Part shown: positions 3,347-54,782 of the stretch, piece after piece
Numbering within the stretch: the first letter of the stretch is position 1
How the letters are laid out: each line of letters begins with the position of its first letter
NCBI GenBank assembly: GCA_963804645.1
Contig: CAWDRG010000019.1
Location: forward strand, 128,001-192,000
Length of the DNA stretch: 64,000 bases
Source: an uncultured Bacillota bacterium
GTDB lineage: Bacteria > Sysuimicrobiota > Sysuimicrobiia > Sysuimicrobiales > Segetimicrobiaceae
Direction: 5' to 3'
The notes under the pieces: generated by a model
What the model saw: only the letters and a program-made list of their open reading frames with translations
What the model was told of the DNA's origin: nothing
The model's database searches: none
Made by a program: the position numbers and the translations under genes

Positions 3347-3382
3347 GCACAACGGCCCCGGCGCATGCCGGGGCCGTTGTGC
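3347..3382 (+). terminator. Perfect 16-bp hairpin after the ECF sigma gene
   Basis: GCACAACGGCCCCGGC-GCAT-GCCGGGGCCGTTGTGC; no clear poly-U tail. Confidence 0.65.
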
Positions 3383-3456
3383 GTGTCGGGGCAGGGGGCC
3401 CTCCGGCCGGCGCGAACCTCCACCTGCGCATACGAGCACGGCACGTGGAGGCCCCG

Positions 3457-4059
3457 ATGCCTGGTGATCTGAGCATTCTTGCGGCAAGACGTACGGTTCG
3501 ATTTTACACCCCGGACGCCGTGCCCGATGACGTGGTCCGCGCGCTGTTCGAGGCGGCGAACCTGGCGCCGTCGGCGCACAACGCGCAGGCGGCGCGCTTC
3601 ATCATCATCCGCTCGCCGGAACTGCGTCGGCGCTTGACCGCTCGCATGTCTCGGCGCTGGCGGCGGGATCTCGAGCGCGCGGGCACGAGCGAGGCGGCCA
3701 TTCGCGTGCAGCTCCGGTTTTCTGAGCGCCGGTTCGGGCAGGCCCCGCTGCTGATTCTGGTCGGCTACACGCTGGAGGACATGGACGAGTATCCCGATCG
3801 GGCGCGCCGCGCGGCCGAGGCGACGATGGCGTCGCAGAGCGCGGCGGCCGCGACGCAGAACCTGTTGCTCGCCGCGGCCGCCCACGGGCTCGGGGGCTGC
3901 TGGACGTGCGCGCCGCTGTTCTGTCCGGGAATCGTGCGCCGGGCCCTCGATCTTCCGGCGTCGTTTGTCCCGCAGGCGCTGCTGACGATCGGCTATCCGG
4001 CGCATACCCCGCCCATGCCGCCGCGCAAGCCCATCGATGCGATCGTGAGCGTTCGGTAG
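3457..4059 (+). CDS. Stand-alone nitroreductase resembling the FbiB C-terminal domain (probable dehydro-F420 reductase, FbiE-like)
   Basis: RRTVRFY, APSAHNAQ, W..DL...G, YPD..R..AE and GGCWTCAPLFCP motifs; directly upstream of cofD. GGAGG precedes ATG 3457. Confidence 0.8.
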   Translation: MPGDLSILAARRTVRFYTPDAVPDDVVRALFEAANLAPSAHNAQAARFIIIRSPELRRRLTARMSRRWRRDLERAGTSEAAIRVQLRFSERRFGQAPLLILVGYTLEDMDEYPDRARRAAEATMASQSAAAATQNLLLAAAAHGLGGCWTCAPLFCPGIVRRALDLPASFVPQALLTIGYPAHTPPMPPRKPIDAIVSVR

Positions 4060-4067
4060 GCGCCGCG

Positions 4068-5042
4068 ATGATCACCGTGCTGTGCGGCGGGGTGGGCGGC
4101 GCGAAGCTGGTCGACGGGCTCGCGGCGGTGCTGCCGGATCCGTCGGACCTTACGGTCGTGGTGAACACCGCCGACGACTGCGCGTGTTGGGGGCTGCACG
4201 TCTCGCCCGACGTCGACACGGTGCTGTATACCCTGGCGGGGCTCGCGAGCCGCACGCAGGGGTGGGGCATCGAGGGCGACACGTGGAGCGCGCTCGACAT
4301 GCTCGGACGCTACGGACTGCCCACGTGGTTTCGGATCGGCGACCGGGACCTCGCGATCCATCTGGCCCGCACACAGCGGCTGCGCGAGGGGCGGCGCTTG
4401 ACCGACGTGACGCTCTCCCTCGCGCGGGCGCTCGGGGTGCGGCCCAAGGTGCTGCCGATGTGCGATGAGCCGGTGGCGACGGTGGTCCACACGCCGTTCG
4501 GGCCGGTCCCGTTTCAGGAATACTTCGTGGCGCGTCGCGCCGCCGATCCGGTGGTCGGTCTTGAGTTCACCGGCATCAGCCGTGCCGAGATCACGCCCGA
4601 GGTCGCCCGCGCGGTCCGGGACGCTGCGCTGGTGATCGTGGCGCCAAGCAATCCCCTCGTCAGCATCGGGCCGATCCTCGCCGTCCCCGGCGCGGGCGAC
4701 GCGCTGGTGGAAAGCCGGGCCCTGCGTATGGCCGTCACCCCGCTCGTCGGCGGCCGGGCGATCAAGGGCCCCACCGTGGAGATGCTCGAGGGATTGAAGA
4801 TGCCCGCCGGGCCGTCCGCTGTCGCGGCGCTGTACCGCGAGTTCCTGGACGTGTTTGTGCTGGACGCGCAGGATCGCGCGGAGGCGCCGTCGGTGTCCGC
4901 CGTCGCGGCGCCAGACCGTCCGATCGCGGTCGAGTGCACGGACACGATCATGATGGACGCCGAGGCGCGTCGCCGCCTCGCCCGCGAGGTCCTGGAGATC
5001 GCTCGGCGGCGCGGCGCCGCGGTGCCGGCCCCGCGCGCGTGA
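4068..5042 (+). CDS. cofD: 2-phospho-L-lactate/PEP transferase (CofD/FbiA)
   Basis: GGVGGAKL, VNTADD, GLHVSPDVDTVLYTLAG, WFRIGDRD, FQEYFV and PSNPLVSIGPIL motifs. Confidence 0.93.
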   Translation: MITVLCGGVGGAKLVDGLAAVLPDPSDLTVVVNTADDCACWGLHVSPDVDTVLYTLAGLASRTQGWGIEGDTWSALDMLGRYGLPTWFRIGDRDLAIHLARTQRLREGRRLTDVTLSLARALGVRPKVLPMCDEPVATVVHTPFGPVPFQEYFVARRAADPVVGLEFTGISRAEITPEVARAVRDAALVIVAPSNPLVSIGPILAVPGAGDALVESRALRMAVTPLVGGRAIKGPTVEMLEGLKMPAGPSAVAALYREFLDVFVLDAQDRAEAPSVSAVAAPDRPIAVECTDTIMMDAEARRRLAREVLEIARRRGAAVPAPRA

Positions 5043-5623
5043 GCGTCTACGCGCTTGTTCCCCAGAAGCGCCTCGCCGACGCCAAGAGCCGGCTCGGCGC
5101 CGTGTTGGCGGTCGATGAGCGCGCCGCGCTGTCGCGCAGGCTGCTCGCCCACGTGTGCTACGCGGTGCGGGCGGTCGCCGGTGTCGAAGGGCTGACGATC
5201 GTGACGCCCGACCTCGCGGTCCGCGAGTGGGCGCGCCGCTGGGGCTGCGAGACCGTCGTGGACCCCGAGCGGGGCTTGAACCCGGCGCTGGCGCACGCCC
5301 TGCGCCTGCCGCGGTGTGACGGACGCGACGTGCTGATCCTGGCGGCCGATCTGCCGTGGGTCCGGCCGTCAGACGTCGCGGCGGTCCTCGCGGCCGGGGG
5401 CGCCGGGCGTTTCGTGCTCGCTCCGTCGAAGGACGGGCTCGGCACGGGCGCGCTGCTCATCCCGAGGGGCGCGCGGTTCATCCCCGAGTTCGGGGCGGGG
5501 AGCCGGGCGGCGCACCGGCGGGCGGCCGCGGGGCTCGGTCTCGAGGTGGTCGAGCTCGTGCGGCCCGGGCTGGCGTTCGATCTCGACGGGCCGGAGGATC
5601 TCGCCGCGCTGCACGCCGGATGA
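5039..5623 (+). CDS. cofC: Phospholactate/PEP guanylyltransferase (CofC/FbiD)
   Basis: VPQK.L..AKSRL, GLNPAL, ADLP, FG.GS...H and DLD.PEDL motifs; GTGA overlap with the cofD stop. Confidence 0.88.
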   Translation: MSVYALVPQKRLADAKSRLGAVLAVDERAALSRRLLAHVCYAVRAVAGVEGLTIVTPDLAVREWARRWGCETVVDPERGLNPALAHALRLPRCDGRDVLILAADLPWVRPSDVAAVLAAGGAGRFVLAPSKDGLGTGALLIPRGARFIPEFGAGSRAAHRRAAAGLGLEVVELVRPGLAFDLDGPEDLAALHAG

Positions 5624-8191: not shown

Positions 8192-10414
8192 CTACGGCGC
8201 GCCGTCGCGGCGCGCGAGCGCGGCCGCCTGCGCCAGGCCTGATCGCGTGAATACCATCACGAGGCTGGGCGTCACGTGCTTCACGGCGCCCGTGGGCAGC
8301 TGCAGCGTGATGGTCATCGAATAGGGGAACAGTGTGCGGGCCGCGTACGGCCCGAACCGCGCGGCGATCGGCTTCAGGTCTTCGGGCGCACCCAAGATGG
8401 CGACGCCAACGTGGCTTCCGGGCACGGGCCCGAGCCAACTGTTTGCGTGCGTCCACACGCCGGAGTCCGGAGCCGGCCCCGGCTCCGTGCATCCCCAGTC
8501 CGGCAGGAGGCCCTCCCGCTGCACGGCGGGGACGCTGATCGGGGCCGTGGCCCCGGGTCCCGCAGTGTACCGCGCGGCGGCGGAGATCAGCGCGGAGAAC
8601 TGGGCGAGGAACCCCTGCTGCCGCATCTCCTCGGGGGTGGGGATCGGCGCAGCGCGGAGCCGCGCGAGCGGCACCTGATAGACGGTCACCCCGCCGGTGT
8701 GGATCGCCGCGGCGTTCAGCGGTGCGAACAGCTCGCTCCAGCGGCCGGGAGTCCCGTCCACCACGACGATCGCGTTCACGCCGGCGTTTGCGAGGAACGC
8801 CTCGAGCTGACGCTTGTGGTCCGGAATGAGCGTCCCGCAGGTTAGTGAATCCGAGATCGGCCACCGGATAAACTCCCAGGCAAACGGCCCCGTGTAGGCG
8901 GCGGCCAGCCGGAAGTACAGCCGCGATTGTGCCTGCCAGAGCAGGGTCTGACTCGCGCCCCCATAGGGGATGACGAGCAGATTGTCGTTCAGCACCACGT
9001 ACTTCCGATACAACCCGTCGGTGATAAACGCCGGTGTCTCGAGGGACGAGATCCAGCGGGCCGGCGGGACGTTCGGGAGCGTCGCGGCGACGGCGGCGAG
9101 CACCAGGGCCCACCTGCCCCACGCGCGGGGCCGCGTCGCGGCCGCCAGCCAGATCGCGGTCGAGACCGCGGCGATCAGGGAGACGTACATCATGAAGCGT
9201 GCCGGCAGCGCCAGCCTGACGAGCGGCAGATGGAGCAGTGCCTGTCCGATCGGCAGGGGGACGTTCGCGCCGGCGATCCGTGCCGACGGGCCCAACGCGG
9301 CGAGGCCGATGAACGCCATCGACAGCAGCAGGAACGCTCCGCTCGCCGTGCGCCACCGCTCCCACGCGAAGAGCGCGAGGACGATGAGCAGCGGGATGCC
9401 CAGGTACGTGCCGGCTTCCGTGACGTTGCCGGAGAACTCGGGGGGCGGTCCACTCAGCAGCCGGCTGCTCAGGCTGACGTCAGTGGGGGTCACGACGTTG
9501 AGCAGATTCGCGGAGTAGTATGTGGGATCCACGCCCGACAGCTGCGGGGAGCCGTGCGCGAACGCGTACGCGAGATAGGGGCTCAAGAGCGCGAGCGCGG
9601 CGAGATACGCGGCGCCGATGAGCCACGCGGTGTTCAGAAGGTGCGGTCGCTTCGCCCGCGGCGCGACGAGCAGGGCGAATGCGATCGCGACCGCCCCGAA
9701 GAGGGTGAGTGTCGCGAACACCTCCGTGGAGGTCAGGAACTGGAGCATGAACAGTCCCGCGAGCGCCGCCGCGAACCACTGGGGTCGGATCTGGTCTTCA
9801 AGACGCAGCACGACGACGTAGACGGTGAGCGGTACCAGGCACGTCACGACGAGGTTCAGGTGTCCGCCGACGAGATGCGCGAGCTCATAGGAAGAAAATC
9901 CGAAGAGATAGCCCGCCGCGAGCGCCGGCCAGAACGCGCCGGTGACGTGCCGGCACAGGAGATACGCCGTCCACGCCGCGAGCGCCGGAGCCAGCAGGAC
10001 AGCGACGTTGTACGCGACGGCCGGGCCGGCCAGCAGCGTCACGGGGGACATGAGCAGGCTCACGCCGGGCACGGACGTACGCCACGCGATGATCATGCCG
10101 GTCGGAGTCCACACCGCATGGGTGATGAGCGGATTGAGCCCGTGCGTGAGGGCGAAGGGCCACCATGCGAGGAACCACATGAACAACACCGCGTCGGTGC
10201 CGAGGCGCCCGACGTACGCGTGGGCCGCGCGCGGGAGCAGCGCAGCGCCGAAGAAGCCTACCGAGAGGAGGAGGTACGCTAGGAACGCGATCGCCGCATC
10301 ACGGGGCGCGCGGCGCCGACGCGCGCGATCGCCTCGGTGTTCGTGTGCCGGGACCATCGAGTCCTCTGCGCGGAGTTGCACGTCGGACGCATCGCTGTCG
10401 TTGCGTGCGGACAT
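8192..10414 (-). CDS. Polytopic membrane protein, probable GT-C fold glycosyltransferase (YfhO-like)
   Basis: More than 10 hydrophobic helices with D...FMW.LAW, AYN, FGFSSY, H.NL, E...YLG and PARF motifs. Confidence 0.7.
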   Translation of the reverse strand: MSARNDSDASDVQLRAEDSMVPAHEHRGDRARRRRAPRDAAIAFLAYLLLSVGFFGAALLPRAAHAYVGRLGTDAVLFMWFLAWWPFALTHGLNPLITHAVWTPTGMIIAWRTSVPGVSLLMSPVTLLAGPAVAYNVAVLLAPALAAWTAYLLCRHVTGAFWPALAAGYLFGFSSYELAHLVGGHLNLVVTCLVPLTVYVVVLRLEDQIRPQWFAAALAGLFMLQFLTSTEVFATLTLFGAVAIAFALLVAPRAKRPHLLNTAWLIGAAYLAALALLSPYLAYAFAHGSPQLSGVDPTYYSANLLNVVTPTDVSLSSRLLSGPPPEFSGNVTEAGTYLGIPLLIVLALFAWERWRTASGAFLLLSMAFIGLAALGPSARIAGANVPLPIGQALLHLPLVRLALPARFMMYVSLIAAVSTAIWLAAATRPRAWGRWALVLAAVAATLPNVPPARWISSLETPAFITDGLYRKYVVLNDNLLVIPYGGASQTLLWQAQSRLYFRLAAAYTGPFAWEFIRWPISDSLTCGTLIPDHKRQLEAFLANAGVNAIVVVDGTPGRWSELFAPLNAAAIHTGGVTVYQVPLARLRAAPIPTPEEMRQQGFLAQFSALISAAARYTAGPGATAPISVPAVQREGLLPDWGCTEPGPAPDSGVWTHANSWLGPVPGSHVGVAILGAPEDLKPIAARFGPYAARTLFPYSMTITLQLPTGAVKHVTPSLVMVFTRSGLAQAAALARRDGAP

Positions 10415-11274: not shown

Positions 11275-11350
11275 TGGTGGGCCGTGCAGGACTTGAACCT
11301 GCAACCTTGGGATTAAGAGTCCCCTGCACTGCCAGTTGTGCTAACGGCCC
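11275..11350 (-). tRNA. tRNA-Lys(CTT)
   Basis: Reverse complement folds as a cloverleaf, GGGCCGT...GGGGA-CT-CTT-AA-TCCC...GGTTCAAGTCC...ACGGCCC-A-CCA (76 nt). Extended -10 TGCTAGAAT lies just upstream. Confidence 0.97.
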
Positions 11351-11404
11351 CGCTTCATTCTAGCAGAGGGTGAAGAGAGTGGGAAGGGGAGATCCCTCGC
11401 GGCG

Positions 11405-11433
11405 TTGACGCATGCGGCGGCCGCACGTAGAAT
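11405..11433 (+). promoter_or_regulatory. sigma70-type promoter of tRNA-Leu
   Basis: TTGACG-N17-TAGAAT. Confidence 0.8.
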
Positions 11434-11445
11434 CGAATCACGGCG

Positions 11446-11535
11446 GCGGGCGTGGCGGAATCCGGCAGACGCGCCAGGCTTAGGACCTGGTGGACCGTGA
11501 GGTTCGTGGGGGTTCAAATCCCTCCGCCCGCACCA
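11446..11535 (+). tRNA. tRNA-Leu(TAG)
   Basis: GCGGGCG/CGCCCGC acceptor stem, CCAGG-CT-TAG-GA-CCTGG anticodon arm, long variable arm, GGTTCAAATCC and encoded CCA. Confidence 0.97.
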
Positions 11536-11583
11536 CCGTGCGCCGCATCGGCGGGTGCCGATGCGGTCGGACCGGGGAGGGCG

Positions 11584-11949
11584 ATGATGATCGAGATCGA
11601 CTGGCAGTATCATCGGCGGGGCTGAGCGACATGCGCCAAGGCCCAGGCGTGTCTTGGGCGGCACCGCGCCGTGGCACGGGTGCAGGTCGACGCGACGCGC
11701 CAGGCGATCGTCGGCAACGCGGCGCTGGCGGTGGTGGATGGGATGCACGACCTCTACTCGGTGCGCGCAGGACGGGTGGTGCATGTGGACCTGCGCGGCG
11801 GCAGACCGTCCCGCGCAGACCTGCGGCGGCTGCTGCTCGGTCCCACCGGTCGGCTGCGCGCGCCGACGCTGCGGGTGGGCCGCACGGTCGTCGTCGGCTA
11901 CGACGCGGTGCTGTTCGAGCGCGTGCTTGCCGCGGGTTCCTCGCGCTGA
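11584..11949 (+). CDS. ArsC/Spx-like thioredoxin-fold selenoprotein (UxxC; in-frame TGA at 11623-11625)
   Basis: GGAGG then ATG gives MMIEIDWQYHRRG-U-ATC-AKAQ..., in frame with the ORF containing GPTGRLRAPTLRVG.TVVVGYD. Confidence 0.8.
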
Positions 11950-11965: not shown

Positions 11966-11995
11966 TTGACGCCCGCGCGGCGCCCCGTGTATACT
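11966..11995 (+). promoter_or_regulatory. sigma70-type promoter of tig-clpP-clpX
   Basis: TTGACG-N18-TATACT. Confidence 0.75.
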
Positions 11996-12078
11996 GCGAG
12001 CAGGTCGTGGCCTCGGCGGTGTGCCCGTCGAGGCCTTCGTCCGTCCTTATCCCCCGACGTATGGAGGAGTGGCGGCTC

Positions 12079-13395
12079 ATGAAGGTGGCGGTGCGCACCG
12101 AACCCGGGAGCCGGGCGGTGCTGGAGATCGAGGTTCCGGAGGACGTCGTGGCGCGCGCGATGGACCGGGCGTACGCCGCGCTCGTCCGGCAGGTCAACGT
12201 GCCCGGGTTCCGGCGCGGCAAGGCGCCGCGCGCGATCCTCGAGCGGCACGTCGGGACCGAGGCGATTCGAGAAGAAGCCCTCCGGCGGCTCATCCCCGAG
12301 CAGTACTCCGAGGCGGTGACGCAGTCGGGGATTTCTCCGATCGCCAGCCCGTCGGTGGACATTCAGGAGGCCGAGGACGGGAAGGGGCTGCGGTTGACCG
12401 CGACGGTGGATGTCTACCCGGAGGTCACCGTTCCCGACTACCGCACCCTGCACGTCGACCGCGAGGCGCATCCCGTGACCGACGAGGACGTGGACCGCGC
12501 GTTCGACGACCTGCGGGCCCGCCAGGGCCGCCTGGTCACGGTCGCGGAGCCGGCGCAGCGCGGGGATTTCGTGCTCGTGACGGTCGTGGCCGCGCCCGCC
12601 GGGCTAGAACGGATGCAGGCGGGGAAGGAGTTACTGGTAGAGGTGGGCGGCGGGCTCCTTCCGGCCGAGGTCGAGGCGGCGCTCGAGGGCGCATGCGCCG
12701 GCGAGGAGCGGACGGCACCGGTGGCGTCCGGCGAGGGCGACGTGACGGTGCGCGTCACCGACGTGCGTCGAAAGGAACTGCCCCCTCTGGACGACGAGTT
12801 CGCACGCAAGGTGTCGGATCAAACGACGCTCGCCGCCCTGCGCGACGGGGTGCGCGCCCAGATCAGCCGGGAGCGCGAGGAGCGGGAACTGAGTGCGCTG
12901 CAGGACCGCGTCGTCGACGCGGTGCTGGCGCAGACCACGATGGAGCTGCCGGAGAGTTTGGTGGAGCACGAGATCGAGCACGTCCTGGAAGATGTGAGCG
13001 GGCGACTGCAGTCGCGGGGGATGACGCTCGAGGCGTATCTGCGCAGCGTCAACAAGGACGAGGCGGCGTTTCGTGCTGAGGTGCGGCCGCGCGCGGAGCG
13101 CCGGGTTCGCGTCCGCGTGCTGCTCGAAGCGGTGACCGAGCGCGAGGGGTTGACGGCGAGTGAGGAGGAGATGGCCGACGAGGTCAAGAAACTCGCGGCC
13201 GAACTCCAGCAGGATGTGCCGAACGTTGAGAAGTGGCTGGACGAGGGGGGCCGCCGCGACGGGATGCGGGCGGGTCTGCTCCGCCGCAAGGCGGTGGACA
13301 CCCTCGTCGAGGCCGTAGCGGGTGCGGCGCCGGCGCCGCGGGCCGACGAACCCGCCGCGGAGCCCGCGGCCGCGACGCCTCCGGCCTCAGAGTAG
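12079..13395 (+). CDS. tig: Trigger factor
   Basis: PGFRRGKAP ribosome-binding motif, [11 protein letters not shown], and position upstream of clpP/clpX. GGAGGAG precedes ATG 12079. Confidence 0.93.
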
Positions 13396-29249: not shown

Positions 29250-30166
29250 ATGGCCGGGAGCGCCGGGATGCGCGCGCGCTCGATGCTGTTTACGCTGTTC
29301 GGCGACTACGTCCGGCACTACGGCGGCACGATCTGGGTCGGCAGCCTGATCGCACTCATGGCCGAGCTCGGCTTCACCGCGCATGCCGTGCGCGCCGCCG
29401 TGTCGCGGATGGCCCGCCAGGGGTGGCTCGCCCCGACGCGGGTCGGCCGCGCCAGTTACTATGCGCTGACGCCTCGCGGACAGGACCGGATCGCGGAGGC
29501 CGCCGGCCGGATCTTCAAGCTGTATCCCGAGGCGTGGGACCGCCACTGGCGGCTGCTCGTGGTGCCGTCGGGAGGCACCGCCCGGCCGCAGCAGGCGGCG
29601 ATGCGCCGTGAACTCGGCTGGATCGGATTCGCGCGGGTGGGGCCGGGCCAGTACATCACGGCGAACGACGTGCTCGGCCGGCTCGCGTCCGTGGAGGAGC
29701 GCTATGGCCTCGTCGGGCGGATCGAGACGTTCGTGGCCCGCCACGAGGGGGGAGCACGGACGCCGCGCTGGCCGCGCGCTCCTGGGACCTCGGCGCCATC
29801 AACGCCGCCTACGCGGCATTTCTCGCGGCCTGGCGGCCGCGGCTGGATGCGAGCCGCGCCGCGGCCGTCGGGGTGTCAGACGCCGAGGCGTTCTCGGAAA
29901 AGTCGCGTCTCGTGCACGAGTTTCGGAAGTTCCTGTTCGTCGATCCCGGTCTTCCCAAGGAGCTGCTGCCGCCGCGCTGGAGCGGGCTCGACGCCCGCGC
30001 GGTGTTCTCCGCGTACTACCATCTCCTGGCGGAGGGGGCGCTGCGCTGCTTCGAGGCGCATTACCGGCCGGCTCCGGGGCGCGAGGCCGACCTGCCGGAC
30101 GGCCGCCGGGCCGCGCGGCGCGACCCGTTCCGACCTGCGGCGCAGGCCGGCGTCGTGCTCGATTAG
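29250..30166 (+). pseudogene. paaX: PaaX family transcriptional repressor, frameshifted at G6 (29747-29752)
   Basis: N-half reads RSMLFTLFGDY...AVSRM...GW...Y.LT. The C-half, in the -1 frame, reads SWDL..IN..Y..F...LVHEFRKFLFVDPGLP.ELLP..W.G. Confidence 0.85.
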
Positions 30167-37272: not shown

Positions 37273-40200
37273 ATGGCCGTGCTCGAGAGACCTACGTGGG
37301 TGGTGGCGCCGTCCGACCCGGAGGCGCAGGCGCTGGCGCTCGCACTCGACGTTCCCCTGGCGGTCGCCGGGGTGCTGCGCCGCCGGGGTGCGACCACCCT
37401 CGAGGCCGCCCGGATCTTTCTGCACCCGTCGCTTGACGATCTCGCCGACCCCTCGGAGATTCCCGGCATGCCAGACGCGGTGGCGCGGCTCGCCCGCGCG
37501 CTCGACGCCGGGGAGCGCATCGCGGTGCACGGCGACTACGACGCGGATGGGATTACCGCGACGGCGATGCTGGTGCGCGCGCTGCGCGCGCTCGGCGCGG
37601 ACCCGCTCTGGTACCTGCCCCACCGCGTGCACGACGGGTACGGGCTCGGGGTGCGGGCGGTCGAGGGGCTGGCCGCGCGCGGGGCGCGCGTGCTCGTCGC
37701 GGTGGACTGCGGCATCACCGCGTTTGATGCGGTGTCGCGGGCCCGCGCGCTCGGCCTCGACGTCGTCGTCGTCGATCACCACACGCCCTCGTCCGAACTG
37801 CCGTCCGCTGTGGTCGTCGCCCCGGTCGGCGCCGCGGACGGCGCCGATCCGTGCGCGGCGGGGCTCGCGTTTTCTCTCGTGTGGGCGCTGCGGCGCCACC
37901 TCGGACGCACCCCGGCGGTGCCCGCCGACCTGGTCGCGCTCGCGGCCCTCGGCACCGTCACGGATGTTGTCCCGCTGCTCGGCGACAACCGCCGCCTCGT
38001 CGCCGCGGGCCTCGCCCAGCTGCGCGGCAGCCCGATCGCCGGGCTGCGGGCGCTGGTGGACGAGTCGACGGGAGAAGGCCCCGTCGAGGCGTGGCACCTC
38101 GGCTGGCAGCTCGGGCCGCGCCTCAACTCGGCCGGCCGCCTCGGCGATCCTTCACCGGCCCTGCACCTCCTCCTGACGGACGATCCGGTCGAAGCCCGGG
38201 ACCTCGCCCGCACGCTCAGCGACCTCAACCGCGAGCGGCAGACCGTGCTGGAGGCCGTGCTCGCGGAAGCGGCCGAGCAGGCGGCGGAGACCCCCGACGC
38301 GCCGGCGCTGGTGGTGGCTGGGGAGGCGTGGCATCCGGGCGTCGTTGGCCTGGTTGCGAGCCGCCTTGTCGAGCTGTACCGGCGTCCCGCGATCGCCGTG
38401 GCCCTGGCCGAGGGCGCCGGCCGCGGCTCGGCGCGGAGCGTCGAGGGGTTCAATCTGGTGGACGCGCTCGCGGCGTGCGGGCAGCACCTGACCGGTTTCG
38501 GCGGCCACGCGATGGCGGCGGGGCTGTCGATTGACGCGCAGGCGATCCCGGAGTTTCGCCGGGCCTTTCAGGCCGTGGCGGCCGCCGCGGTGCCGCCCTC
38601 GGCCGCCCGGCTTCACGTGGACGCGGAGCTTACCCTCGCCGAGGTGACCGTGCCGCTCGTCGCGGCGCTGGACCGGCTGGCGCCGTTCGGCGCGGGCAAT
38701 CCCCAGCCCGTGTTCGCGGTCCGGGGCGTGCGCGCGGTGACCCGGCGCCTCGTCGGCGGCGGCGTCCATCTCCGGATGGGCGTCACGGACGGCACGGTAT
38801 TCATGGAGACGATCGGATTTGCGATGGCGGGGTGGGGCGAGGTGCTGACCTTCACCGACGCCCTCGTCGATCTCGCATTCGTGCCCGAGTTCGATCGGTA
38901 CGAGGCCGGACGCGTCCGGCTCCGGCTGCGCGCGTTGGAGACACCGGGCGTGGACCCGCAGGCGCTGCTGGCCGACACCGGTTTGTTGGTCGACCGGTTG
39001 TTCCACCACGCGGACGAGTACGTCGCGGACGACCGCGACGCGCGCGGCGACGCGGCGGAGTTCTACACGAAAGTCGCCGGGGTGACGTTCGACGACCGCC
39101 AGGCGGTGCTCGCCACGCTGCGCGACGGCGACGCGCTCGTCCTGCGGCGCGAGCCCGCGAACACGCACGATCCGCACGCGGTGCGCGTGACGGCGGGGGA
39201 CGGCCGGATGGTGGGCTACTTGAGCGCGCGGCTCGCGGGGCGCGTCGCCCCGGCGATGGACGCCGGAGGGCGGTATCGCGCGACCGTCTCTCGGGTTACC
39301 GGCGGCGGAGATCGCACGCTCGGCCTCAACATCTTCGTCGAGCGCGCGGACGATGAGCCGGCGCGCCTCGGTGCCGCGGCGCGGGCAGCGTGGCGTGCGC
39401 TGGATCAGGACGGCGTCGCCGCGCGGCTGCCGATCTACGTCAACGGCGGACGGACGCTGCGGCCCGCGCTCGCGGAGGCGCTCGCGGAGGCCCGCCGTGG
39501 AGGGTCGCCCGTGCTGAGCCTGCCGCCCGCACGCGGGTGGGCTGCGGCGCTCGCCGGGGCCGCCGCCCAGGCGTCGACGGGAGACCGGGGCGCGCTCGTG
39601 ATCTGTCCGACGTGGCCGGACGTCGCGCACCGCACCGAGCAGCTGCGCGACCGGCTGGCGGCGATCGGCTTCCGCGTCGTGCCGGTGCACGGCATGATGG
39701 GCGTGGGTGAGCGGGACCACGCCGCGGCGGCGCTGCGGGCGGGGGACGCGGACGTGGTCGTCGCGAGCCTCGAGGCGGTGTGTGATGGGACGCTCGTGGG
39801 GCCATGGTCTGCCCGGGCGGGCATGATCGTGCTGGACGGCCTCTCCGCCGCGGATGCCGCGCTGCTGCCCGCGGACACGGCTGCGCGGCCGAGCTTCGCG
39901 GTCGCGGAGGCCGCGGAGGCGGCGGCGCTGGCGCGCGCGCGGCGTGGGGTGGTGCTGCTGCGGGACGATCCGCCGCGGCCGCTGATCCGGATCGACGACC
40001 GGCGGAACTCCGCGGGCCTGGACGCCGTGTTGGAGGAAGTGGCTCAGGCAGGCGAGAAAACCGTCGTTTATACTGCGACGGCCGACGCATGTGTGCGCGC
40101 GGCGGTGCGGCTTCGAGATCGTGCCGGCTCGCTCCGAGTCGGCTATCTGCATGCGGGGCTGCCGGCCCGGCTTCGGCAGGTCGTGGCGGGAGCGTTCCAG

Positions 40201-40770
40201 GAGGGACGGCTCGGGATGCTGGTGACGACGGCGCTGGACGAGGAGGCCCTGCCGGCGGATCTGCGCCGGGCGGTGCTGGCGTCGTTCCCGGCGGACCGGC
40301 GGGCGCTGTTCGCGGCCTGCGGCACCGTGGGGCTCGACCGGCGTCCGTCGACCGTTACGCTCGCGTTTGGCGCGGAGGACGGCGCGGCGCGCCGCCGCGA
40401 GATGGAAGGGCGCGCGCCCAGCCGGGACCTGCTGGTGCAGCTCTACCGCGCGCTCAAGGCGTGGCGGGGGGAGCTGCCGTTCCCGTGGCCGGACGACGAA
40501 ACCTGGACGCGCGTGCGGGCCGCGGCGCCGGGCGCGACGGTACCGTCCGTGGACGCGGCGTGCGCGATCTTCGAGGAAGTCGGGCTGGCGGCGCGGGAGG
40601 GCACCGCGGGCGGGTGGCAGGTGCGCCTCGTCCCGGCCGATGGGCGGCGGGACCTGCGCGCCTCGCTGCGGTTTCGCGAGGGCGTGCGGGAGCGGGACGC
40701 GTTCGAGGCATGCGCGGGGTGGGTCGAGCGCGCGCCGGCCGCGGAGATCCAGCGGGCGGTGTCGTCGTGA
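37273..40770 (+). CDS. recJ: ssDNA exonuclease RecJ fused to HIRAN and degenerate SF2 helicase domains
   Basis: GDYDADG, DCG, DHH, PRLNSAGRL, RGSARS, GGHAMAAG and PFGAGNP, followed by about 600 extra residues. Confidence 0.93.
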   Translation: MAVLERPTWVVAPSDPEAQALALALDVPLAVAGVLRRRGATTLEAARIFLHPSLDDLADPSEIPGMPDAVARLARALDAGERIAVHGDYDADGITATAMLVRALRALGADPLWYLPHRVHDGYGLGVRAVEGLAARGARVLVAVDCGITAFDAVSRARALGLDVVVVDHHTPSSELPSAVVVAPVGAADGADPCAAGLAFSLVWALRRHLGRTPAVPADLVALAALGTVTDVVPLLGDNRRLVAAGLAQLRGSPIAGLRALVDESTGEGPVEAWHLGWQLGPRLNSAGRLGDPSPALHLLLTDDPVEARDLARTLSDLNRERQTVLEAVLAEAAEQAAETPDAPALVVAGEAWHPGVVGLVASRLVELYRRPAIAVALAEGAGRGSARSVEGFNLVDALAACGQHLTGFGGHAMAAGLSIDAQAIPEFRRAFQAVAAAAVPPSAARLHVDAELTLAEVTVPLVAALDRLAPFGAGNPQPVFAVRGVRAVTRRLVGGGVHLRMGVTDGTVFMETIGFAMAGWGEVLTFTDALVDLAFVPEFDRYEAGRVRLRLRALETPGVDPQALLADTGLLVDRLFHHADEYVADDRDARGDAAEFYTKVAGVTFDDRQAVLATLRDGDALVLRREPANTHDPHAVRVTAGDGRMVGYLSARLAGRVAPAMDAGGRYRATVSRVTGGGDRTLGLNIFVERADDEPARLGAAARAAWRALDQDGVAARLPIYVNGGRTLRPALAEALAEARRGGSPVLSLPPARGWAAALAGAAAQASTGDRGALVICPTWPDVAHRTEQLRDRLAAIGFRVVPVHGMMGVGERDHAAAALRAGDADVVVASLEAVCDGTLVGPWSARAGMIVLDGLSAADAALLPADTAARPSFAVAEAAEAAALARARRGVVLLRDDPPRPLIRIDDRRNSAGLDAVLEEVAQAGEKTVVYTATADACVRAAVRLRDRAGSLRVGYLHAGLPARLRQVVAGAFQEGRLGMLVTTALDEEALPADLRRAVLASFPADRRALFAACGTVGLDRRPSTVTLAFGAEDGAARRREMEGRAPSRDLLVQLYRALKAWRGELPFPWPDDETWTRVRAAAPGATVPSVDAACAIFEEVGLAAREGTAGGWQVRLVPADGRRDLRASLRFREGVRERDAFEACAGWVERAPAAEIQRAVSS

Positions 40771-40789
40771 CGCCGCATCAGGAGAGGCG

Positions 40790-43060
40790 ATGAGCGTCGA
40801 GCAGCCGGGCGGAGTCAAGCCGGGAAAGGCCGCGGAGATGGTCGGCGGCGCGATGAAGCGGCTGCACCTGGTGCGCCCAAGCGCCGAGGCGCCGCTCGCG
40901 CCGGAGGCCGGCGCCCTGCTCGAGCACGTCCGCGAGCTGATCCCCACCGCCGATCGGGACCTGATTCGCCGCGCGTATCTGTTTGCCGAGGAGGCGCACG
41001 CGGGACAGACGCGCGCGTCCGGCGAGCCGTACGTCAACCACAGCGTCGCGGTCGCCGACGTCCTGGTCGGGCTGCGCCTCGACGCGGCGACGATCGCGGC
41101 CGCGCTGCTGCACGACGTCCCGGAGGACACGTCGCACACGATCGACGAGGTCCGCGACAAGTTTGGTGCCGAGATCGCGGGGCTGGTCGACGGGGTGACG
41201 AAGCTCGGCCGCATCGAATGGAAGTCCCGGGAGGAGCGCCAGGCGGAGAACCTCCGGAAGATGTTCCTCGCGATGGCGAGCGATATCCGGATCATCCTGA
41301 TCAAGCTCGCCGACCGCGTGCACAACATGCGGACGATCGAAGCGCTCCCCGAGTGGAAGCAGAAGCGCACGGCCCGCGAGACCCTCGAGATCTACGCCCC
41401 CCTGACCGAGCGGCTCGGCATCGGCAGCATCAAGCGCGAACTCGAGGACCTGTCGTTTCGCGTGCTGGAGCCGGCGGCGTACCAGGAGATCGCCGGGGAG
41501 ATCGAGCGCGACAACCAGGAGCAGCAGGCGCTGCTGGCGCGGGCCGCCGACGCCCTCCACGCCGAACTGAACCGGTCCGGCATCAAGGTCGACCGTGGGG
41601 CGATCACCGGGCGTCCGAAGCACGTCTACAGCATCTATCAGAAGATGCAGCGCCCGAAGTACCAGGGCCAGGGCGTCGGACGCATCTACGACCGGCTGGC
41701 GGTGCGCGTCATCGTCAACGACGTTGGGGAGTGCTACCAGGCGTTTGGGATCGTGCACGCGCTGTGGAAGCCAATCCCCGGCGAGGTCGACGACTACATC
41801 GCGAACCCGAAGACGAGTGGCTACCAGTCGCTGCACACCGCGGTGCTCTACGAGGGGCAGCCGCTCGAGATTCAGATTCGAACCCAGCCCATGCACCGGG
41901 TCGCCGAGCACGGGATCGCCGCCCACTGGCGCTACAAGGAGGGCGGTCCGAAGACCGAGGCCGCGTTCGAGCAGAAGCTGTCGTGGCTGCGCCAGCTCCT
42001 GGAGTGGCACCAGGAGGTGCAGGACGCGCGGGAGTTCATGCACTCGGTCAAGATCGATCTGTTCCAGAACGAGGTCTTCGTGTTTACGCCGAAGGGCGAC
42101 ATCGTCGACCTGCCGGCCGGCGCGACGCCGGTGGACTTCGCGTTTCGGATCCACACCGACGTCGGCTACCACACGACCGGGGCGCGCGTGAACGGGCGGC
42201 TCGTGCCGCTCAGCCACGTGCTGCATTCGGGGGACATCGTCGAGGTCCAGACGAGCAAGCAGAGCGCCGGCCCGAGCCGCGACTGGGTCGCGTTCGTCCA
42301 GACCAGCAACGCGCGGACGAAGATCCGGCAGTGGTTCAAGCGGGAGCGGCGGGACGAGAACATCACGCGCGGCAAGGAGTTGCTCGAACGGGAGCTGCGG
42401 CGCGGCGGCAGCGTTGCGGCGTTCATGAAGCCGGAGCGACTGCGGGAGATCGCGCCGCGGTTCGGCCTCCCGAACGAGGACGAGCTGTACGCGGCGCTCG
42501 GCAACGGCGACGTCTCGCTGCTGCAGGTCGTGCAGGGCCTCCGCGGCGAGCCGGCCGCGGCGGAGCCCGAGCCCGTCCCGCCGCCGACGACGCCGGCGCC
42601 GCCGTCGGCGGCCCGGGGCATCCACGTCCGCGGCGTTGAAAATGTCCTGATGCGGCTCGGCCGGTGCTGCAGCCCGCTGCCGGGCGACCGCGTCGTGGGC
42701 TACATCACCCGGGGCCGGGGCGTCAGCATCCACCGCGCGGACTGTCCGAACATCCAGTTCCTGCGCGCCCAGCCCGAGCGCATGCTCGACGTCGAGTGGG
42801 ACGCGTCGCCGGACGGCACGTATCAGGTCGAACTGGAGGTCGAGGCGCTCGACCGCGTCGGGATGCTTAAGGACATCCTCGCGGCGATCAGCGAGACCAA
42901 GACCAACCTCGTGTCGCTCAACGCGCGCGTACGGAAGGACAAGGTCGCCGTGATCGACATCATCGCCGACATCGCGAACGTGGCGCAGTTGACGGGATTG
43001 ATGCACCGCATCGGACGGGTGAAAGACGTCTACAACGTCGAACGCGTCGTGCCGCACTGA
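40790..43060 (+). CDS. rel: Long RelA/SpoT homolog, (p)ppGpp synthetase/hydrolase
   Basis: HAGQ.R.SGEPY, LLHDVPEDT, KLADRVHNMRT, YQSLHT, TGS domain, CC.P.PGD and ACT domain. Confidence 0.97.
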   Translation: MSVEQPGGVKPGKAAEMVGGAMKRLHLVRPSAEAPLAPEAGALLEHVRELIPTADRDLIRRAYLFAEEAHAGQTRASGEPYVNHSVAVADVLVGLRLDAATIAAALLHDVPEDTSHTIDEVRDKFGAEIAGLVDGVTKLGRIEWKSREERQAENLRKMFLAMASDIRIILIKLADRVHNMRTIEALPEWKQKRTARETLEIYAPLTERLGIGSIKRELEDLSFRVLEPAAYQEIAGEIERDNQEQQALLARAADALHAELNRSGIKVDRGAITGRPKHVYSIYQKMQRPKYQGQGVGRIYDRLAVRVIVNDVGECYQAFGIVHALWKPIPGEVDDYIANPKTSGYQSLHTAVLYEGQPLEIQIRTQPMHRVAEHGIAAHWRYKEGGPKTEAAFEQKLSWLRQLLEWHQEVQDAREFMHSVKIDLFQNEVFVFTPKGDIVDLPAGATPVDFAFRIHTDVGYHTTGARVNGRLVPLSHVLHSGDIVEVQTSKQSAGPSRDWVAFVQTSNARTKIRQWFKRERRDENITRGKELLERELRRGGSVAAFMKPERLREIAPRFGLPNEDELYAALGNGDVSLLQVVQGLRGEPAAAEPEPVPPPTTPAPPSAARGIHVRGVENVLMRLGRCCSPLPGDRVVGYITRGRGVSIHRADCPNIQFLRAQPERMLDVEWDASPDGTYQVELEVEALDRVGMLKDILAAISETKTNLVSLNARVRKDKVAVIDIIADIANVAQLTGLMHRIGRVKDVYNVERVVPH

Positions 43061-46719: not shown

Positions 46720-48045
46720 GTGGAGATCAAAGCGCCGCGCGGCATGCAGGACATCCTGCCCGGGGAGACGGCCCGGTGGCAGCATCTCGAGCGCGTCCTG
46801 CGGGACCTCGTGCGCCGGTATGGCTACCGTGAGATCCGCACGCCGGTCGTGGAGCATACCGAGGTGTTCCAGCGGGGCATCGGCGAGGGGACCGACATCG
46901 TCGACAAGGAGATGTACACGTTTCGCGACCGCGCCGACCGCAGTCTGTCGCTTCGGGCGGAGGGGACGGCGCCGGTCATGCGCGCCTTCCTGGAGCACAA
47001 CATTGGGGCGGCCGGACTGCCGGTCCGGGTGTACTACATCTGTCCGATCTTCCGGTACGATCGGCCGCAGGCCGGCCGGTACCGGCAGCACACGCAGTTC
47101 GGGGCCGAGGTGATCGGCAGCCCGGACCCCGCCGCGGACGCGGAGGTCCTCGGCCTCGCCGTGCGGACCCTCGAGACCCTCGGCCTGACCGACGTCGAGC
47201 TGCACCTCAACAGCGTCGGGGACGAGGTGTGCCGTCCCCGGTACCTCGAAGCGCTGCGGGACTACTACCGCCCGTACCTCGGGGAGATGTGCGACGACTG
47301 CCGGCGCCGCTTCGAGATCGCGCCGCTTCGCCTCCTCGACTGCAAGCGCGACCACGACCGGCGTCTCGCGGAAGGCGCTCCGCGGATGCTGGATTACCTC
47401 TGCGACGCGTGCAAGGAACACTTCGAGGGCGTGCAGGCGTATTTCCGGGCGATGGGGGTCTCCTACCGAATCGACCCGGGCATCGTCCGAGGCTTGGACT
47501 ACTATACGCGGACCGCGGCGGAGGTGTTCTCGGGCAAGCTCGGCGCGCAGAGCGCGATGTTCGGGGGCGGGCGGTACGACGGCCTCGCCGCGCAGCTCGG
47601 CGGCAAGCCGGTCCCGGGGGTCGGCTTCGGCATGGGACTGGAGCGGGTGCTGCGGGTCCTCGAGCAGGAGCACATCGCGCTGCCGGGCGAGCCGCCGCCG
47701 GACCTCTTTATCGCGGCGGCGGACGATGTGGGGGCCCGCGATCTGCACACGGCGGCCACTGCGATGGCCGACCGCCTCCGGCGGGCCGGCCTCAGCGTGG
47801 AGGTCGACGTGATGGGGCGCAGCCTCAACGCCCAGATGCGGCAGGCGAACCGCGTGGGCGCGCGGTTCGCGCTGATCCTCGAGGGCGACCGGCTGCGGCT
47901 GCGCGAGATGGCCACGGGGCAGGAGGCGGACCTCACCTCCGAGCCCGGGGACGCGGCGGCGCTGGCGCACGCGGACGCGCCGGTCCTGGTGCGGCTCACG
48001 CAGGCGGTGGCGGCGCGGGTGGGGTCTCGAAAGGAGCACGCATGA
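46720..48045 (+). CDS. hisS: Histidine--tRNA ligase
   Basis: RG.QD, KEMY.F, LRAEGTA, FRYDRPQAGRYRQ, RGLDYY and GGGRYDGL. Confidence 0.97.
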   Translation: MEIKAPRGMQDILPGETARWQHLERVLRDLVRRYGYREIRTPVVEHTEVFQRGIGEGTDIVDKEMYTFRDRADRSLSLRAEGTAPVMRAFLEHNIGAAGLPVRVYYICPIFRYDRPQAGRYRQHTQFGAEVIGSPDPAADAEVLGLAVRTLETLGLTDVELHLNSVGDEVCRPRYLEALRDYYRPYLGEMCDDCRRRFEIAPLRLLDCKRDHDRRLAEGAPRMLDYLCDACKEHFEGVQAYFRAMGVSYRIDPGIVRGLDYYTRTAAEVFSGKLGAQSAMFGGGRYDGLAAQLGGKPVPGVGFGMGLERVLRVLEQEHIALPGEPPPDLFIAAADDVGARDLHTAATAMADRLRRAGLSVEVDVMGRSLNAQMRQANRVGARFALILEGDRLRLREMATGQEADLTSEPGDAAALAHADAPVLVRLTQAVAARVGSRKEHA

Positions 48046-49838
48046 GCAGCGACCTGGGTACGTGGCGGCGCACGCACGACAACGGCAGTCTCCGGGCGGG
48101 CGACGTCGGCGCCGCGGTGACCCTGATGGGCTGGGTGCACAACCGGCGCGACCTCGGGGGGTTGATCTTCATCGACCTGCGGGACCGCGCCGGGATCACG
48201 CAGGTAGTCTGCAACCCGCAGGAGGCGGAGGCGCCGGCGCTCGCCGCCGCGCAGGTGCGCAACGAGTATGTGATCGCGGTGTCGGGCGTGGTCGCCGCGC
48301 GCCCCGCCGGGACGGACAACGCCAAGCTGCCGACCGGACAGATCGAAGTCCGCGCGCGCGAGCTGCGCGTCCTCAACGCCGCCGAGACGCCGCCGTTTCC
48401 GATCGCGGACGCGATCGAGGTGGACGAGGCGGTGCGCCTCAAGTACCGCTACCTCGATCTCAGACGGCCGGCGATGTATGACCACCTCGCGCTGCGGCAC
48501 CGCGCCGCGAAGGCGTTCCGGGATTTTCTCTCCTCGGACGGGTTCCTCGAGGTCGAGACCCCAATGCTGATCAAGGGCACGCCCGAGGGGGCGCGCGATT
48601 TCCTGGTCCCGAGCCGCGTCCAGCCGGGGAAGTTCTTCGTGCTGCCGCAGTCGCCGCAGCTGTTCAAGCAGATCCTGATGGTCGCCGGGGTCGAGCGGTA
48701 CTTCCAGATCGTGCGGTGCTTCCGCGATGAGGACCTCCGGGCCGACCGCCAGCCCGAGTTCACGCAGATCGACATCGAATGCGCGTTCGTCGGCCGCGAT
48801 GACGTGCTGGCGCTCGGGGAGCGCATGATGGAGGCGGTCCTCCGCGACACGGTCGGCCGAGGGGTCTCGCTCCCGCTGCCCCGTCTGACCTACGCCGACG
48901 CGATGGACCGCTACGGCAGCGACAAGCCGGATCTCCGGTTCGGCATGGAGATCGTCGACTGCACGGAGGCCGTCGGGAGCACCGGGTTCCGCACGTTCGA
49001 CGCGGTGGTCTCGGGCGGCGGCGCGGTCCGCGGCCTCCGCGTCCCGGGGGCGTCGGGCTACAGCCGCCGGGAGATACAGGAACTGGAAGCGCTCGCCACC
49101 GCCGCCGGGGCGGCCGGCCTCCTGCCGGTGCACCTGGAAGACGGGGGGAAGGTGCGCGGCCCGCTCGCCAAGTTCCTGTCTTCCGCGGCCACGGCCGCGC
49201 TGGCGGCGCGCTTCGGCGCCGCTCCGGGAGATCTGCTGCTGCTCGTGGCCGGGCCCGCGCGCGAGGCGAGTACGGTGCTCGGTCGGCTCCGCCTCGATCT
49301 CGTGCGTCTGCGCCCCGATCTGCACGCGCGGGTGGGATACGATCCGGACCGGCTCGCGATGCTGTGGGTCGTCGACTTTCCGCTGTTTGAGCGGAGCTCG
49401 GACGGGGCGGTGACCGCCGTGCACCATCCGTTCACATCCCCGCTCGACGCGGATCTCCCGCGGCTCGACGCCGACCCGCTCGGCGTCCGCGCGAATGCGT
49501 ACGACCTGGTGCTGAATGGGGTCGAGCTCGGCGGGGGCAGCATCCGGATCCACCGCCGGGAACTGCAGGAGCGCATCTTCTCGATCCTCGGCATCTCCCC
49601 GGAGGTGGGCCGAGAGCGATTCGGCTTCTTGCTCGACGCCTTTCGCTACGGCGCGCCCCCGCACGGCGGCATTGCGCTTGGGTTCGACCGGTTCGTGATG
49701 CTGCTCGCGGGCGAGGAGTCGATTCGCGAGGTGATCGCGTTTCCGAAGACCGCGAGCGCGACTGATCTCATGACCGGCGCCCCCGCCGAGGTGGAGCCCT
49801 CGCAGCTCGAAGAGGCCCACATCCAGATTCGGTTGTAA
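48042..49838 (+). CDS. aspS: Aspartate--tRNA ligase
   Basis: RRDLGGLIFIDLRD, PEGARDF, LPQSPQLFKQ, FRDEDLRADRQPEF and PPHGGIALG.DR. Confidence 0.97.
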   Translation: MSSDLGTWRRTHDNGSLRAGDVGAAVTLMGWVHNRRDLGGLIFIDLRDRAGITQVVCNPQEAEAPALAAAQVRNEYVIAVSGVVAARPAGTDNAKLPTGQIEVRARELRVLNAAETPPFPIADAIEVDEAVRLKYRYLDLRRPAMYDHLALRHRAAKAFRDFLSSDGFLEVETPMLIKGTPEGARDFLVPSRVQPGKFFVLPQSPQLFKQILMVAGVERYFQIVRCFRDEDLRADRQPEFTQIDIECAFVGRDDVLALGERMMEAVLRDTVGRGVSLPLPRLTYADAMDRYGSDKPDLRFGMEIVDCTEAVGSTGFRTFDAVVSGGGAVRGLRVPGASGYSRREIQELEALATAAGAAGLLPVHLEDGGKVRGPLAKFLSSAATAALAARFGAAPGDLLLLVAGPAREASTVLGRLRLDLVRLRPDLHARVGYDPDRLAMLWVVDFPLFERSSDGAVTAVHHPFTSPLDADLPRLDADPLGVRANAYDLVLNGVELGGGSIRIHRRELQERIFSILGISPEVGRERFGFLLDAFRYGAPPHGGIALGFDRFVMLLAGEESIREVIAFPKTASATDLMTGAPAEVEPSQLEEAHIQIRL

Positions 49839-51827: not shown

Positions 51828-51860
51828 GACCGGCCGGCCCGGCCGCGCCGGGAGCCTTGC

Positions 51861-51889
51861 TTGACACGGTCCGGGGGCGGGCGCATCAT
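51861..51889 (+). promoter_or_regulatory. sigma70-type promoter, probably leaderless, of rarA
   Basis: TTGACA-N17-CATCAT ending 6 nt before GTG 51896. Confidence 0.6.
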
Positions 51890-51895
51890 GGATGT

Positions 51896-53230: not shown

Positions 53231-53260
53231 CGCCGCGGGCCGGGACAGCGGGAGGTGCGT

Positions 53261-54361: not shown

Positions 54362-54782
54362 CGGCGGGGTCGCGGAGATGAGCCTGGCCGTGATCGCGGT
54401 GGCGGTCGTGGTTGCGGTGATCTTCTTGGTGCCCGCCTTGATTGAGGTCCGGCGGGCCGCCGCGCGCGCCTCGCGGACGATCGAAACCGTGGACGCCGCG
54501 CTGCCGAGCCTGCTCACCGAGTTGACCGAGGCGGTCGGCACGATGAGTCGGACGGCCGACACCGTGGGCAGCCTGGCCGCGTCGGTGGAGCGATTGGACC
54601 GGCTGTCCGCGGCCGCGGTGCGGACCGCCGGAGCCCTGGTGGGGGTGATGGGGATGATGGGACAGACCACCCGCGGCGTGATGATGCCGTCTCTCGCCAA
54701 CGTGGTCGGCGTGCTGTCGGCCGTGCGGGAGGGCATCGAGTGGGTGCGACCGAGACGCGACAAGAGGAGGGACGGAACATGA
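54354..54782 (+). CDS. DUF948/YtxG-like membrane-anchored coiled-coil protein
   Basis: N-terminal TM helix followed by a heptad-like helical body; directly upstream of the YtxH-like gene. Confidence 0.65.
   Translation: MPSGGVAEMSLAVIAVAVVVAVIFLVPALIEVRRAAARASRTIETVDAALPSLLTELTEAVGTMSRTADTVGSLAASVERLDRLSAAAVRTAGALVGVMGMMGQTTRGVMMPSLANVVGVLSAVREGIEWVRPRRDKRRDGT

Follow-up and report, generated by a model that had tools for sequence, protein, structure and literature searches.

Selenoproteins related to arsenate reductase (ArsC) have been present in the literature since 2005-2008 (PMC1794560, PMC2398784). These include the "ArsC-like" or "distant ArsC homolog" selenoproteins of Desulfotalea and Desulfuromonas entered in the tables of one study (PMC1794560), and two groups named in the Global Ocean Sampling (GOS) study, "Arsenate reductase (ArsC) 1", with the motif UxxS (U, selenocysteine) and assigned to pfam03960, and "Arsenate reductase 2", with the motif UxxC and 42 sequences (PMC2398784). 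An "Arsenate reductase-like protein" with UxxC is entered under COG1393 in a 2022 review (PMC9312934), and a 2026 review lists the NCBIfam family NF041106 as "Arsenate reductase-like protein", UxxC, citing the GOS study (PMC13188914). The gene described here belongs to this last family. It occupies positions 11584-11949 of the plus strand in a 64,000-nucleotide stretch of DNA (the window) from an uncultured bacterium placed by GTDB in the Sysuimicrobiota (assembly GCA_963804645.1, contig CAWDRG010000019.1, positions 128,001 to 192,000), and it is very probably a genuine selenocysteine (Sec)-encoding gene, the main residual doubt being whether the genome has the machinery for Sec. An initial reading of the letters alone (the sequence-only reading) had presented the locus as a hidden selenoprotein; the novelty implied by that phrase was overstated, since the family is already listed in the 2026 review (PMC13188914).

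Anatomy of the Gene

The gene comprises the following elements, among them a candidate selenocysteine insertion sequence (SECIS) and an open reading frame (ORF) of 92 amino acids (aa).

11576-11580, plus strand: Shine-Dalgarno-like GGAGG, inside GGGGAGGG (11574-11581), from reading the sequence
11584-11949, plus strand: coding sequence, in full, of the predicted selenoprotein of the ArsC family, 121 codons with Sec14 counted and then the TGA stop (11947-11949), from translation
11623-11625, plus strand: in-frame TGA, probably read as selenocysteine (U14), position 1 of U-x-x-C, from sequence, translation and relatives
11632-11634, plus strand: TGC codon for Cys17, second (resolving) position of U-x-x-C, from sequence and alignment
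11641-11659, plus strand: bacterial SECIS-type hairpin in the coding sequence, stem 11641-11647/11653-11659, loop 11648-11652
11671-11949, plus strand: 92-aa ORF given by ordinary gene calling, the C-terminal three quarters of the predicted gene, from the ORF listing

Thirteen sense codons run from the ATG at 11584-11586 to the TGA at 11623-11625, after which the frame stays open to the stop at 11947-11949, so that the read-through product has 121 aa and contains U14-A-T-C17. The GGAGG lies 3 nucleotides (nt) from this ATG and 6 nt from a second, alternative start (ATG 11587-11589) that would give a protein of 120 aa. The hairpin has a stem of 7 base pairs (bp), including one G-U, which begins 15 nt after the TGA, and a loop of 5 nt whose second and third bases are G and U. 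The 92-aa ORF, with GTG 11671 as its start, sits in the read-through frame. The Shine-Dalgarno-like site, the ATG at 11584, the in-frame TGA, the U-x-x-C motif and the 7-bp hairpin 15 nt past the TGA were all found where the sequence-only reading had placed them, and direct translation gave the peptide it had quoted and confirmed its claim that the frame continues from the TGA into the 92-aa ORF.

The Selenocysteine Column in Relatives

A scan of species-representative genomes returned at least 599 matching stretches, at least 578 of them confirmed relatives, from which the best 80 loci were kept. These lie mostly in metagenome-assembled genomes (MAGs) of Methylomirabilota/Rokubacteria, Planctomycetota, Acidobacteriota and Gemmatimonadota. 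Where the window has its TGA, the aligned codon is TGA in 74 of the 80 loci (including L036, which was read directly), TGC in six (L015, L032, L033, L039, L042, and L069), and TAA or TAG in none, while the true stops of the family genes are a mixture of TGA, TAG, and TAA. The pairing of Cys with TGA for which an alignment of homologs had been proposed therefore exists, at the exact column (74 TGA and 6 TGC among 80), and it agrees with the placement of the TGA at the first position of a CxxC-type motif, U14-A-T-C17 in the window, with Cys at that position in the six relatives.

A start codon is found 12-13 codons 5' of the TGA column in nearly all loci. Alignment A3 consists of 57 sequences, the window and 56 loci with less than 80% mutual identity, chosen from among 76 for which a start could be assigned; outside this pool were L036 and three loci that lack a start within 11-15 codons (L005, L031, and L069). 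With U read as C, residues W7, Y9, R11, U/C14, and C17 are invariant in all 57 members, and D6 and G13 are nearly invariant. Because W7, Y9, and R11 are invariant upstream of the TGA, the codons that precede it are under selection at the protein level.

A Conserved and Covarying Hairpin

The hairpin was compared in an ungapped alignment of 55 nt, beginning at the TGA, of the 74 TGA forms (73 loci and the window), which contains 73 distinct rows. At least five of the seven pairs of the stem are kept in all 74 TGA forms, compared with two to four of seven in the six Cys forms, and GU occupies loop positions 2-3 in 74/74. The hairpin is absent from all six Cys forms. Over the distinct rows, the helix 19-25/31-37 (alignment positions) is 86.7% paired and its five inner pairs are kept in 73/73. 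Pairs 22-34 and 25-31 show no variation, the only change at 23-33 and 24-32 is to G-U, and pair 21-35 is GC in 69 rows, GU in one and CG in three, with the two-sided change to CG occurring in the window, L020, and L073. Sliding the partners lowers the pairing of the whole tested structure from 71% to 19-49%, and the observed covariation score was reached by none of 500 shuffles. RNAalifold finds the hairpin unprompted and adds a closing pair, 26-30, which is AU in 41 sequences, GC in 29 and broken in four, the window among them. The pair ties base 2 of a Glu/Gly codon to base 3, a synonymous site, of the Phe codon that follows, and protein coding alone does not explain its covariation. It is comparison, through the stop column, the five inner pairs and the covarying pair 26-30, that raises the observation above chance.

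With pair 26-30 broken, the window hairpin has a 5-nt loop, and there are extra G-C pairs at the base of its stem. Its energy is -11.2 kcal/mol, within the range of the family (-6.1 to -14.2, median -9.0 kcal/mol); the Cys forms range from -0.2 to -7.7 kcal/mol. The model of the bacterial SECIS given in the legend of Fig. 2 of the 2026 review sets a loop of 3-9 nt with G as one of its first two bases, a stem of 4-16 bp, a distance of 16-37 nt between UGA and loop, and a minimum free energy of at most -7.5 kcal/mol (PMC13188914). On these published limits the window hairpin falls inside every range, with a loop of 5 nt, a stem of 7 bp, G at loop position 2, a UGA-to-loop distance of 22 nt, and -11.2 kcal/mol. 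The adjacent in-frame SECIS suggested by the sequence-only reading thus corresponds to a hairpin that is conserved, covarying and absent from Cys forms. The same reading had described the stem as extendable by GCC/GGC; the 7-bp hairpin stands, and the extension (11635-11637 with 11660-11662) exists in the window but was rejected as a conserved part of the stem, as only 34.2% of its cells are paired over the 73 distinct sequences.

Protein Family and Predicted Fold

The read-through protein matches NF041106, "ArsC family (seleno)protein", at 110.3 bits, above the curated cutoff of 85 (E = 6.5e-32), with residues 5-109 on profile positions 1-105 of 107, an alignment that spans the TGA and bears out the proposed ArsC-like affiliation. 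Compared as a profile with solved structures, alignment A3 matches Spx (1z3e) at E = 1e-7 and the ArsC-family chains 2m46, 3gkx, 1rw1, and 2kok at values down to 1.7e-4, placing U/C-x-x-C on the CxxC of Spx and the invariant LRAP on its LRRP. The Pfam family ArsC (PF03960) matches 54 of the 57 members of A3 at E ≤ 0.01, the window member not being among them.

An AlphaFold2 model built with A3 has a predicted local distance difference test score (pLDDT) of 94.5 and a predicted template modeling score (pTM) of 0.87. It consists of a strand (3-10), a helix (15-26), a strand (29-36), a helix (44-51), a beta-hairpin (56-69), a helix (77-84), strands at 95-98 and 101-104, and a C-terminal helix (108-119), that is, strand-helix with the redox motif at the N-terminus of the helix, an inserted subdomain, and then strand-strand-helix. 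In a Foldseek search of the PDB, YffB (1rw1) was first (template modeling score, TM, 0.54/0.57), followed by Spx (about 0.51), and the top matches had TM values of 0.50-0.57. In thioredoxin-fold proteins the N-terminus of helix 1 is the place of the nucleophilic Cys of CxxC redox proteins; Sec14 in the model falls there, where strand 1 leads into the helix, with Cys17 one helical turn later. As modeled, the protein belongs to the ArsC/Spx/YffB superfamily, with a somewhat different middle segment.

Stored Homologs

A search for homologous proteins found 173, of which 120 were listed. The listed homologs fall into three size groups, of about 102 aa, of 74-92 aa, and a single protein of 115 aa. 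Those of about 102 aa start exactly one codon past the Sec column, and those of 74-92 aa start further in, a pattern that arises because gene callers stop at the in-frame TGA. The gene of the window is itself in the database only as the 92-aa entry P0003, with 76% query coverage, and has thus been missed by standard gene callers, as had been supposed. According to the model this fragment is without strand 1, the U-x-x-C center and helix 1.

In many relatives an ATG directly follows the Sec TGA (loci L003-L007, L018, L025-L027, L029, L040, L049, L050, and L070; proteins P0008, P0009, P0011-P0057, and others), so that callers restart there and store a 102-aa protein that has neither strand 1 nor Sec. 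One such 102-aa entry, P0019, still bears the NCBI name "ArsC family (seleno)protein". The 115-aa protein, P0010 (from the Joint Genome Institute, JGI), has the full conserved N-terminus and W at the Sec column, which probably reflects translation under a code that reads TGA as Trp.

Evidence Against Selenocysteine and Competing Explanations

Several observations weigh against reading the locus as a functional Sec-encoding gene of the ArsC-like family. The 74:6 ratio of TGA to TGC describes the loci most like a Sec-form query and not the whole family. The window protein alone has no Pfam match at E ≤ 1, and among solved structures it has only a weak match, to Spx (E = 0.29). The Foldseek E-values are modest, from 8.2e-3 at best to 6e-2, and the segment between core strands 2 and 3 contains a beta-hairpin that the best matches superpose only partly. 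Folded as a single sequence, the 73-nt region 11618-11690 is indistinguishable from shuffles (z = 0.08, with 107 of 200 shuffles folding as well) and its minimum-energy structure is a different one from the hairpin; this test was rejected as evidence either way. The loop sequence of the window recurs in none of the other 73 hairpins, and its pair 26-30 is broken. Among the ORFs that most closely flank the gene on either side at 43 loci (86 of 231 listed ORFs; Pfam, E ≤ 1e-10), no conserved neighbor family was found beyond closely related genomes; because no neighbor family recurs and the gene travels alone, its context is uninformative on function. Finally, no match to selA, selB, or selD was found among the 52 ORFs of the 64-kb window scanned with NCBIfam, and neither ARAGORN nor Rfam finds a tRNA-Sec in the window, where the only tRNAs are tRNA-Lys and tRNA-Leu. 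The 52 ORFs are those of 65 that passed a filter on G+C content at third codon positions (GC3), the 13 dropped being mostly antisense or overlapping, and the 92-aa ORF was scanned separately.

The absence of sel genes from 64 kb says little about the whole genome. The gene content of the window is of a housekeeping kind (cofC, cofD, tig, clpP, clpX, lon, valS, secD, secF, recJ, relA/spoT, hisS, and aspS). Among the relatives, locus L059 (a Ca. Methylomirabilis MAG) has a tRNA-Sec at 9186-9276 (Rfam RF01852, 71.4 bits, gathering score 47), located about 1.8 kb downstream of the family gene, itself of the TGA form. A second call, the tRNA-SeC reported by ARAGORN at 3474-3558 of L035, is unconfirmed by Rfam and falls within an ORF of 563 aa, and it is likely a false call. 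The ORFs around the tRNA-Sec of L059 and the call in L035 gave no match to sel genes (NCBIfam, E ≤ 1e-8).

The absence of sel genes and tRNA-Sec from the window, together with its unique loop and broken pair 26-30, would suit a relic, that is, a member of a true selenoprotein family in a genome that has lost the Sec machinery, in which the TGA terminates translation and the locus is silent or yields only a peptide of 13 residues. Against this, no damage is seen in the N-terminal codons, the Shine-Dalgarno-like site, Cys17, or any of the downstream frame; the hairpin is more stable than the median of its family, and the two-sided GC-to-CG change keeps its pairing. The closest relatives (72-82% identity) are moreover stored as truncated 89-aa ORFs, which suggests, indirectly and as judged from the stored proteins, that the TGA is shared across the clade. 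A relic is on balance improbable.

The remaining explanations fare worse. UGA might be decoded as Trp, Cys, or Gly, one of the standard amino acids, through a reassigned code or SECIS-independent suppression, as the W stored at this column in P0010 would suggest were it not most likely the product of gene calling with a different code. Of the 39 family-matched genes of the window, 19 have TGA as their ordinary stop, and the profile matches of the TGA-ended genes reach or nearly reach the ends of their profiles. Because TGA ends these genes, the genetic code is not reassigned; a position-specific hairpin and pairing with Cys alone are, besides, the signature of Sec, and this explanation is very improbable. 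It is equally hard to credit that the locus has two products, a leader peptide ending at the TGA and a separate 92-aa protein from GTG 11671, with the hairpin in a regulatory role such as attenuation. The 92-aa ORF does have its own GTG, and the hairpin does lie between it and the TGA, but in the model the thioredoxin-like sheet is incomplete without residues 3-26 (strand 1, redox motif, and helix 1), the alignments to NF041106 and Spx run across the TGA, and in Cys forms the region is one uninterrupted ORF. Nor is it at all likely that an ordinary ArsC-like gene of the Cys type has acquired the TGA by nonsense mutation, or shows it through a mistake in sequencing or assembly: a single base separates it from the TGC of six relatives, but TGA stands at this column in 74 of 80 relatives from many phyla and the window has a SECIS-type hairpin that Cys forms lack. 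The Sec recoding put forward by the sequence-only reading is thus the explanation supported by membership in NF041106, by TGA/TGC pairing, and by the conserved SECIS-type hairpin.

Genomic Context

Three further features lie upstream of the gene.

11405-11433, plus strand: promoter-like site, 10/12 consensus matches, 5' of tRNA-Leu, from consensus match only
11446-11535, plus strand: tRNA-Leu, anticodon TAG, the upstream neighbor, from ARAGORN and Rfam RF00005 (55.8 bits)
11541-11569, plus strand: GC-rich spacer hairpin, 10-bp perfect core 11543-11552/11557-11566, no T-run, from RNA folding

The promoter-like site at 11405-11433 is the sole one on the plus strand before the selenoprotein gene, and between tRNA-Leu and the gene neither a promoter-like nor a terminator-like site was found. 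Because the only promoter-like site lies 5' of the tRNA, co-transcription of the gene with tRNA-Leu would be plausible, as far as motif matches can indicate the structure of the transcript. Against simple co-transcription counts the strong GC hairpin between the two, which has a 4-nt loop and an energy of -31.1 kcal/mol (z = -2.01, with 9 of 200 shuffles folding as well) and may be a tRNA 3' processing signal, a terminator without a U-tract, or an attenuator. Downstream lies the trigger factor gene tig (ORF 12007-13395, TIGR00115, 329 bits), preceded by another promoter-like site at 11966-11995. The tRNA-Leu (TAG, plus strand) is divergent from a tRNA-Lys (CTT, minus strand), both within 11275-11535, and promoter-like sites face in either direction, at 11385-11357 (minus) and 11405-11433 (plus).

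Elsewhere in the window, 1217-1975 encodes a ResA/DsbE-like thiol-disulfide oxidoreductase with an ordinary W-C-x-x-C. It was rejected as a second selenoprotein, as it scores 63 bits against a cutoff of 300 with the ResA-like "WAxxUGC" model and has a Cys motif. A cluster for coenzyme F420 biosynthesis is found at 3379-5620 and consists of an FbiB C-terminal-like nitroreductase, cofD, and cofC. The 97-aa ORF at 29873-30163, a neighbor of enoyl-CoA hydratase and thiolase genes of the paa type, aligns with the regulator PaaX in its C-terminal part only (profile positions 196-260 of 279) and may be a truncated or frameshifted paaX or have a miscalled start. Antisense ORFs of 772-1235 aa, such as 38155-41370, 47505-49820, and 51827-55531 (all minus strand), match no family; they lie opposite real genes, as shadows cast by a G+C content of 70%.

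Proposed Mechanism and Significance

Given the sequence anatomy, family membership, Sec/Cys pairing, conserved and covarying hairpin, and fold established above, 11584-11949 would be a single gene, its product a cytosolic protein of 121 aa with a thioredoxin fold, in the ArsC/Spx/YffB superfamily and subfamily NF041106. The TGA at 11623-11625 would not act as a stop; the hairpin at 11641-11659 would serve as a bacterial SECIS, recruiting SelB with Sec-tRNA(Sec) to the ribosome so that selenocysteine is inserted at residue 14 in this organism. The protein would then most likely cycle between the selenol/thiol and selenenylsulfide states and act as a small oxidoreductase. This redox function is suggested by the modeled fold and the motif, and the family name does not imply arsenate reduction; no ars genes were seen among the 52 scanned ORFs of the window or the nearest neighbors of the 43 loci.

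Correct annotation of the gene restores a selenoprotein predicted to be redox-active and marks the organism as one that probably uses selenium, where public protein sets hold only the 92-aa fragment without the active site, and many of the relatives only as 102-aa fragments. The high share of Sec forms makes the protein a reasonable candidate for biochemical study, while no new biology is opened by it. Among homologs of the ClpX of the window, the best informative name, at 87% identity, is "Bacillati bacterium ANGP1", whose older form, "Terrabacteria group bacterium ANGP1", corresponds in the NCBI taxonomy to Ca. Segetimicrobium genomatis of the phylum Ca. Sysuimicrobiota, a tentative pointer to the lineage. 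The term "selen" is absent from the main text of the Sysuimicrobiota phylum paper (PMC11604079), and Sysuimicrobiota and selenocysteine occur together in none of the 10 literature matches listed. It is conceivable, if doubtful, that the window is indeed from a Ca. Sysuimicrobiota (CSP1-3)-like organism and that the gene is the first concrete sign that this phylum decodes UGA as Sec by way of a lineage-specific SECIS variant. Such a variant, with its loop of 5 nt and reinforced lower stem, would hint at a SelB that recognizes the loop in a slightly different way, and the chemistry, given the 74 Sec forms to 6 Cys forms in the sampled relatives, may depend unusually strongly on selenium.

Comparison with Known Systems

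Among proteins of solved structure, Spx, the CxxC redox-sensing regulator of Firmicutes (1z3e, 6ghb), is the best match by sequence profile and has a similar fold (TM about 0.51). Spx proteins are known as Cys proteins. Identity to Spx is only about 21%, and the match supports membership in the superfamily but not Spx function. The YffB/ArsC-family proteins (1rw1, 3gkx, 2kok, and 2m46; PF03960) include the best structural match, 1rw1, and PF03960 recognizes 54 of the 57 aligned members, although the window protein itself is below its reach at E ≤ 1. The UxxS ArsC-like proteins of the GOS study and the selenoproteins of Desulfotalea and Desulfuromonas, compared here by their published descriptions, share the superfamily and the position of Sec first in an N-terminal redox motif, but differ in that the motif is UxxS rather than UxxC or the subfamily is unstated (PMC2398784, PMC1794560).

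The closest described system is NF041106 itself, with which the window member shares U-x-x-C, length, the conserved N-terminal and LRAP motifs, Sec/Cys pairing, and the in-frame hairpin. It differs from the family in its divergence (38-52% identity to the 56 aligned relatives), in a loop of 5 nt where the family has one of 3 nt closed by a covarying pair, in a stronger lower stem (three extra residues' worth), and in a C-terminal tail of five residues. It differs also in its probable Ca. Sysuimicrobiota-like origin, whereas the retrieved relatives are mostly from Methylomirabilota/Rokubacteria, Planctomycetota, and Acidobacteriota. The family, the UxxC motif and the curated model were thus already known, and what is added here is a divergent, variant-loop member that may stem from a lineage in which the use of Sec has gone undiscussed.

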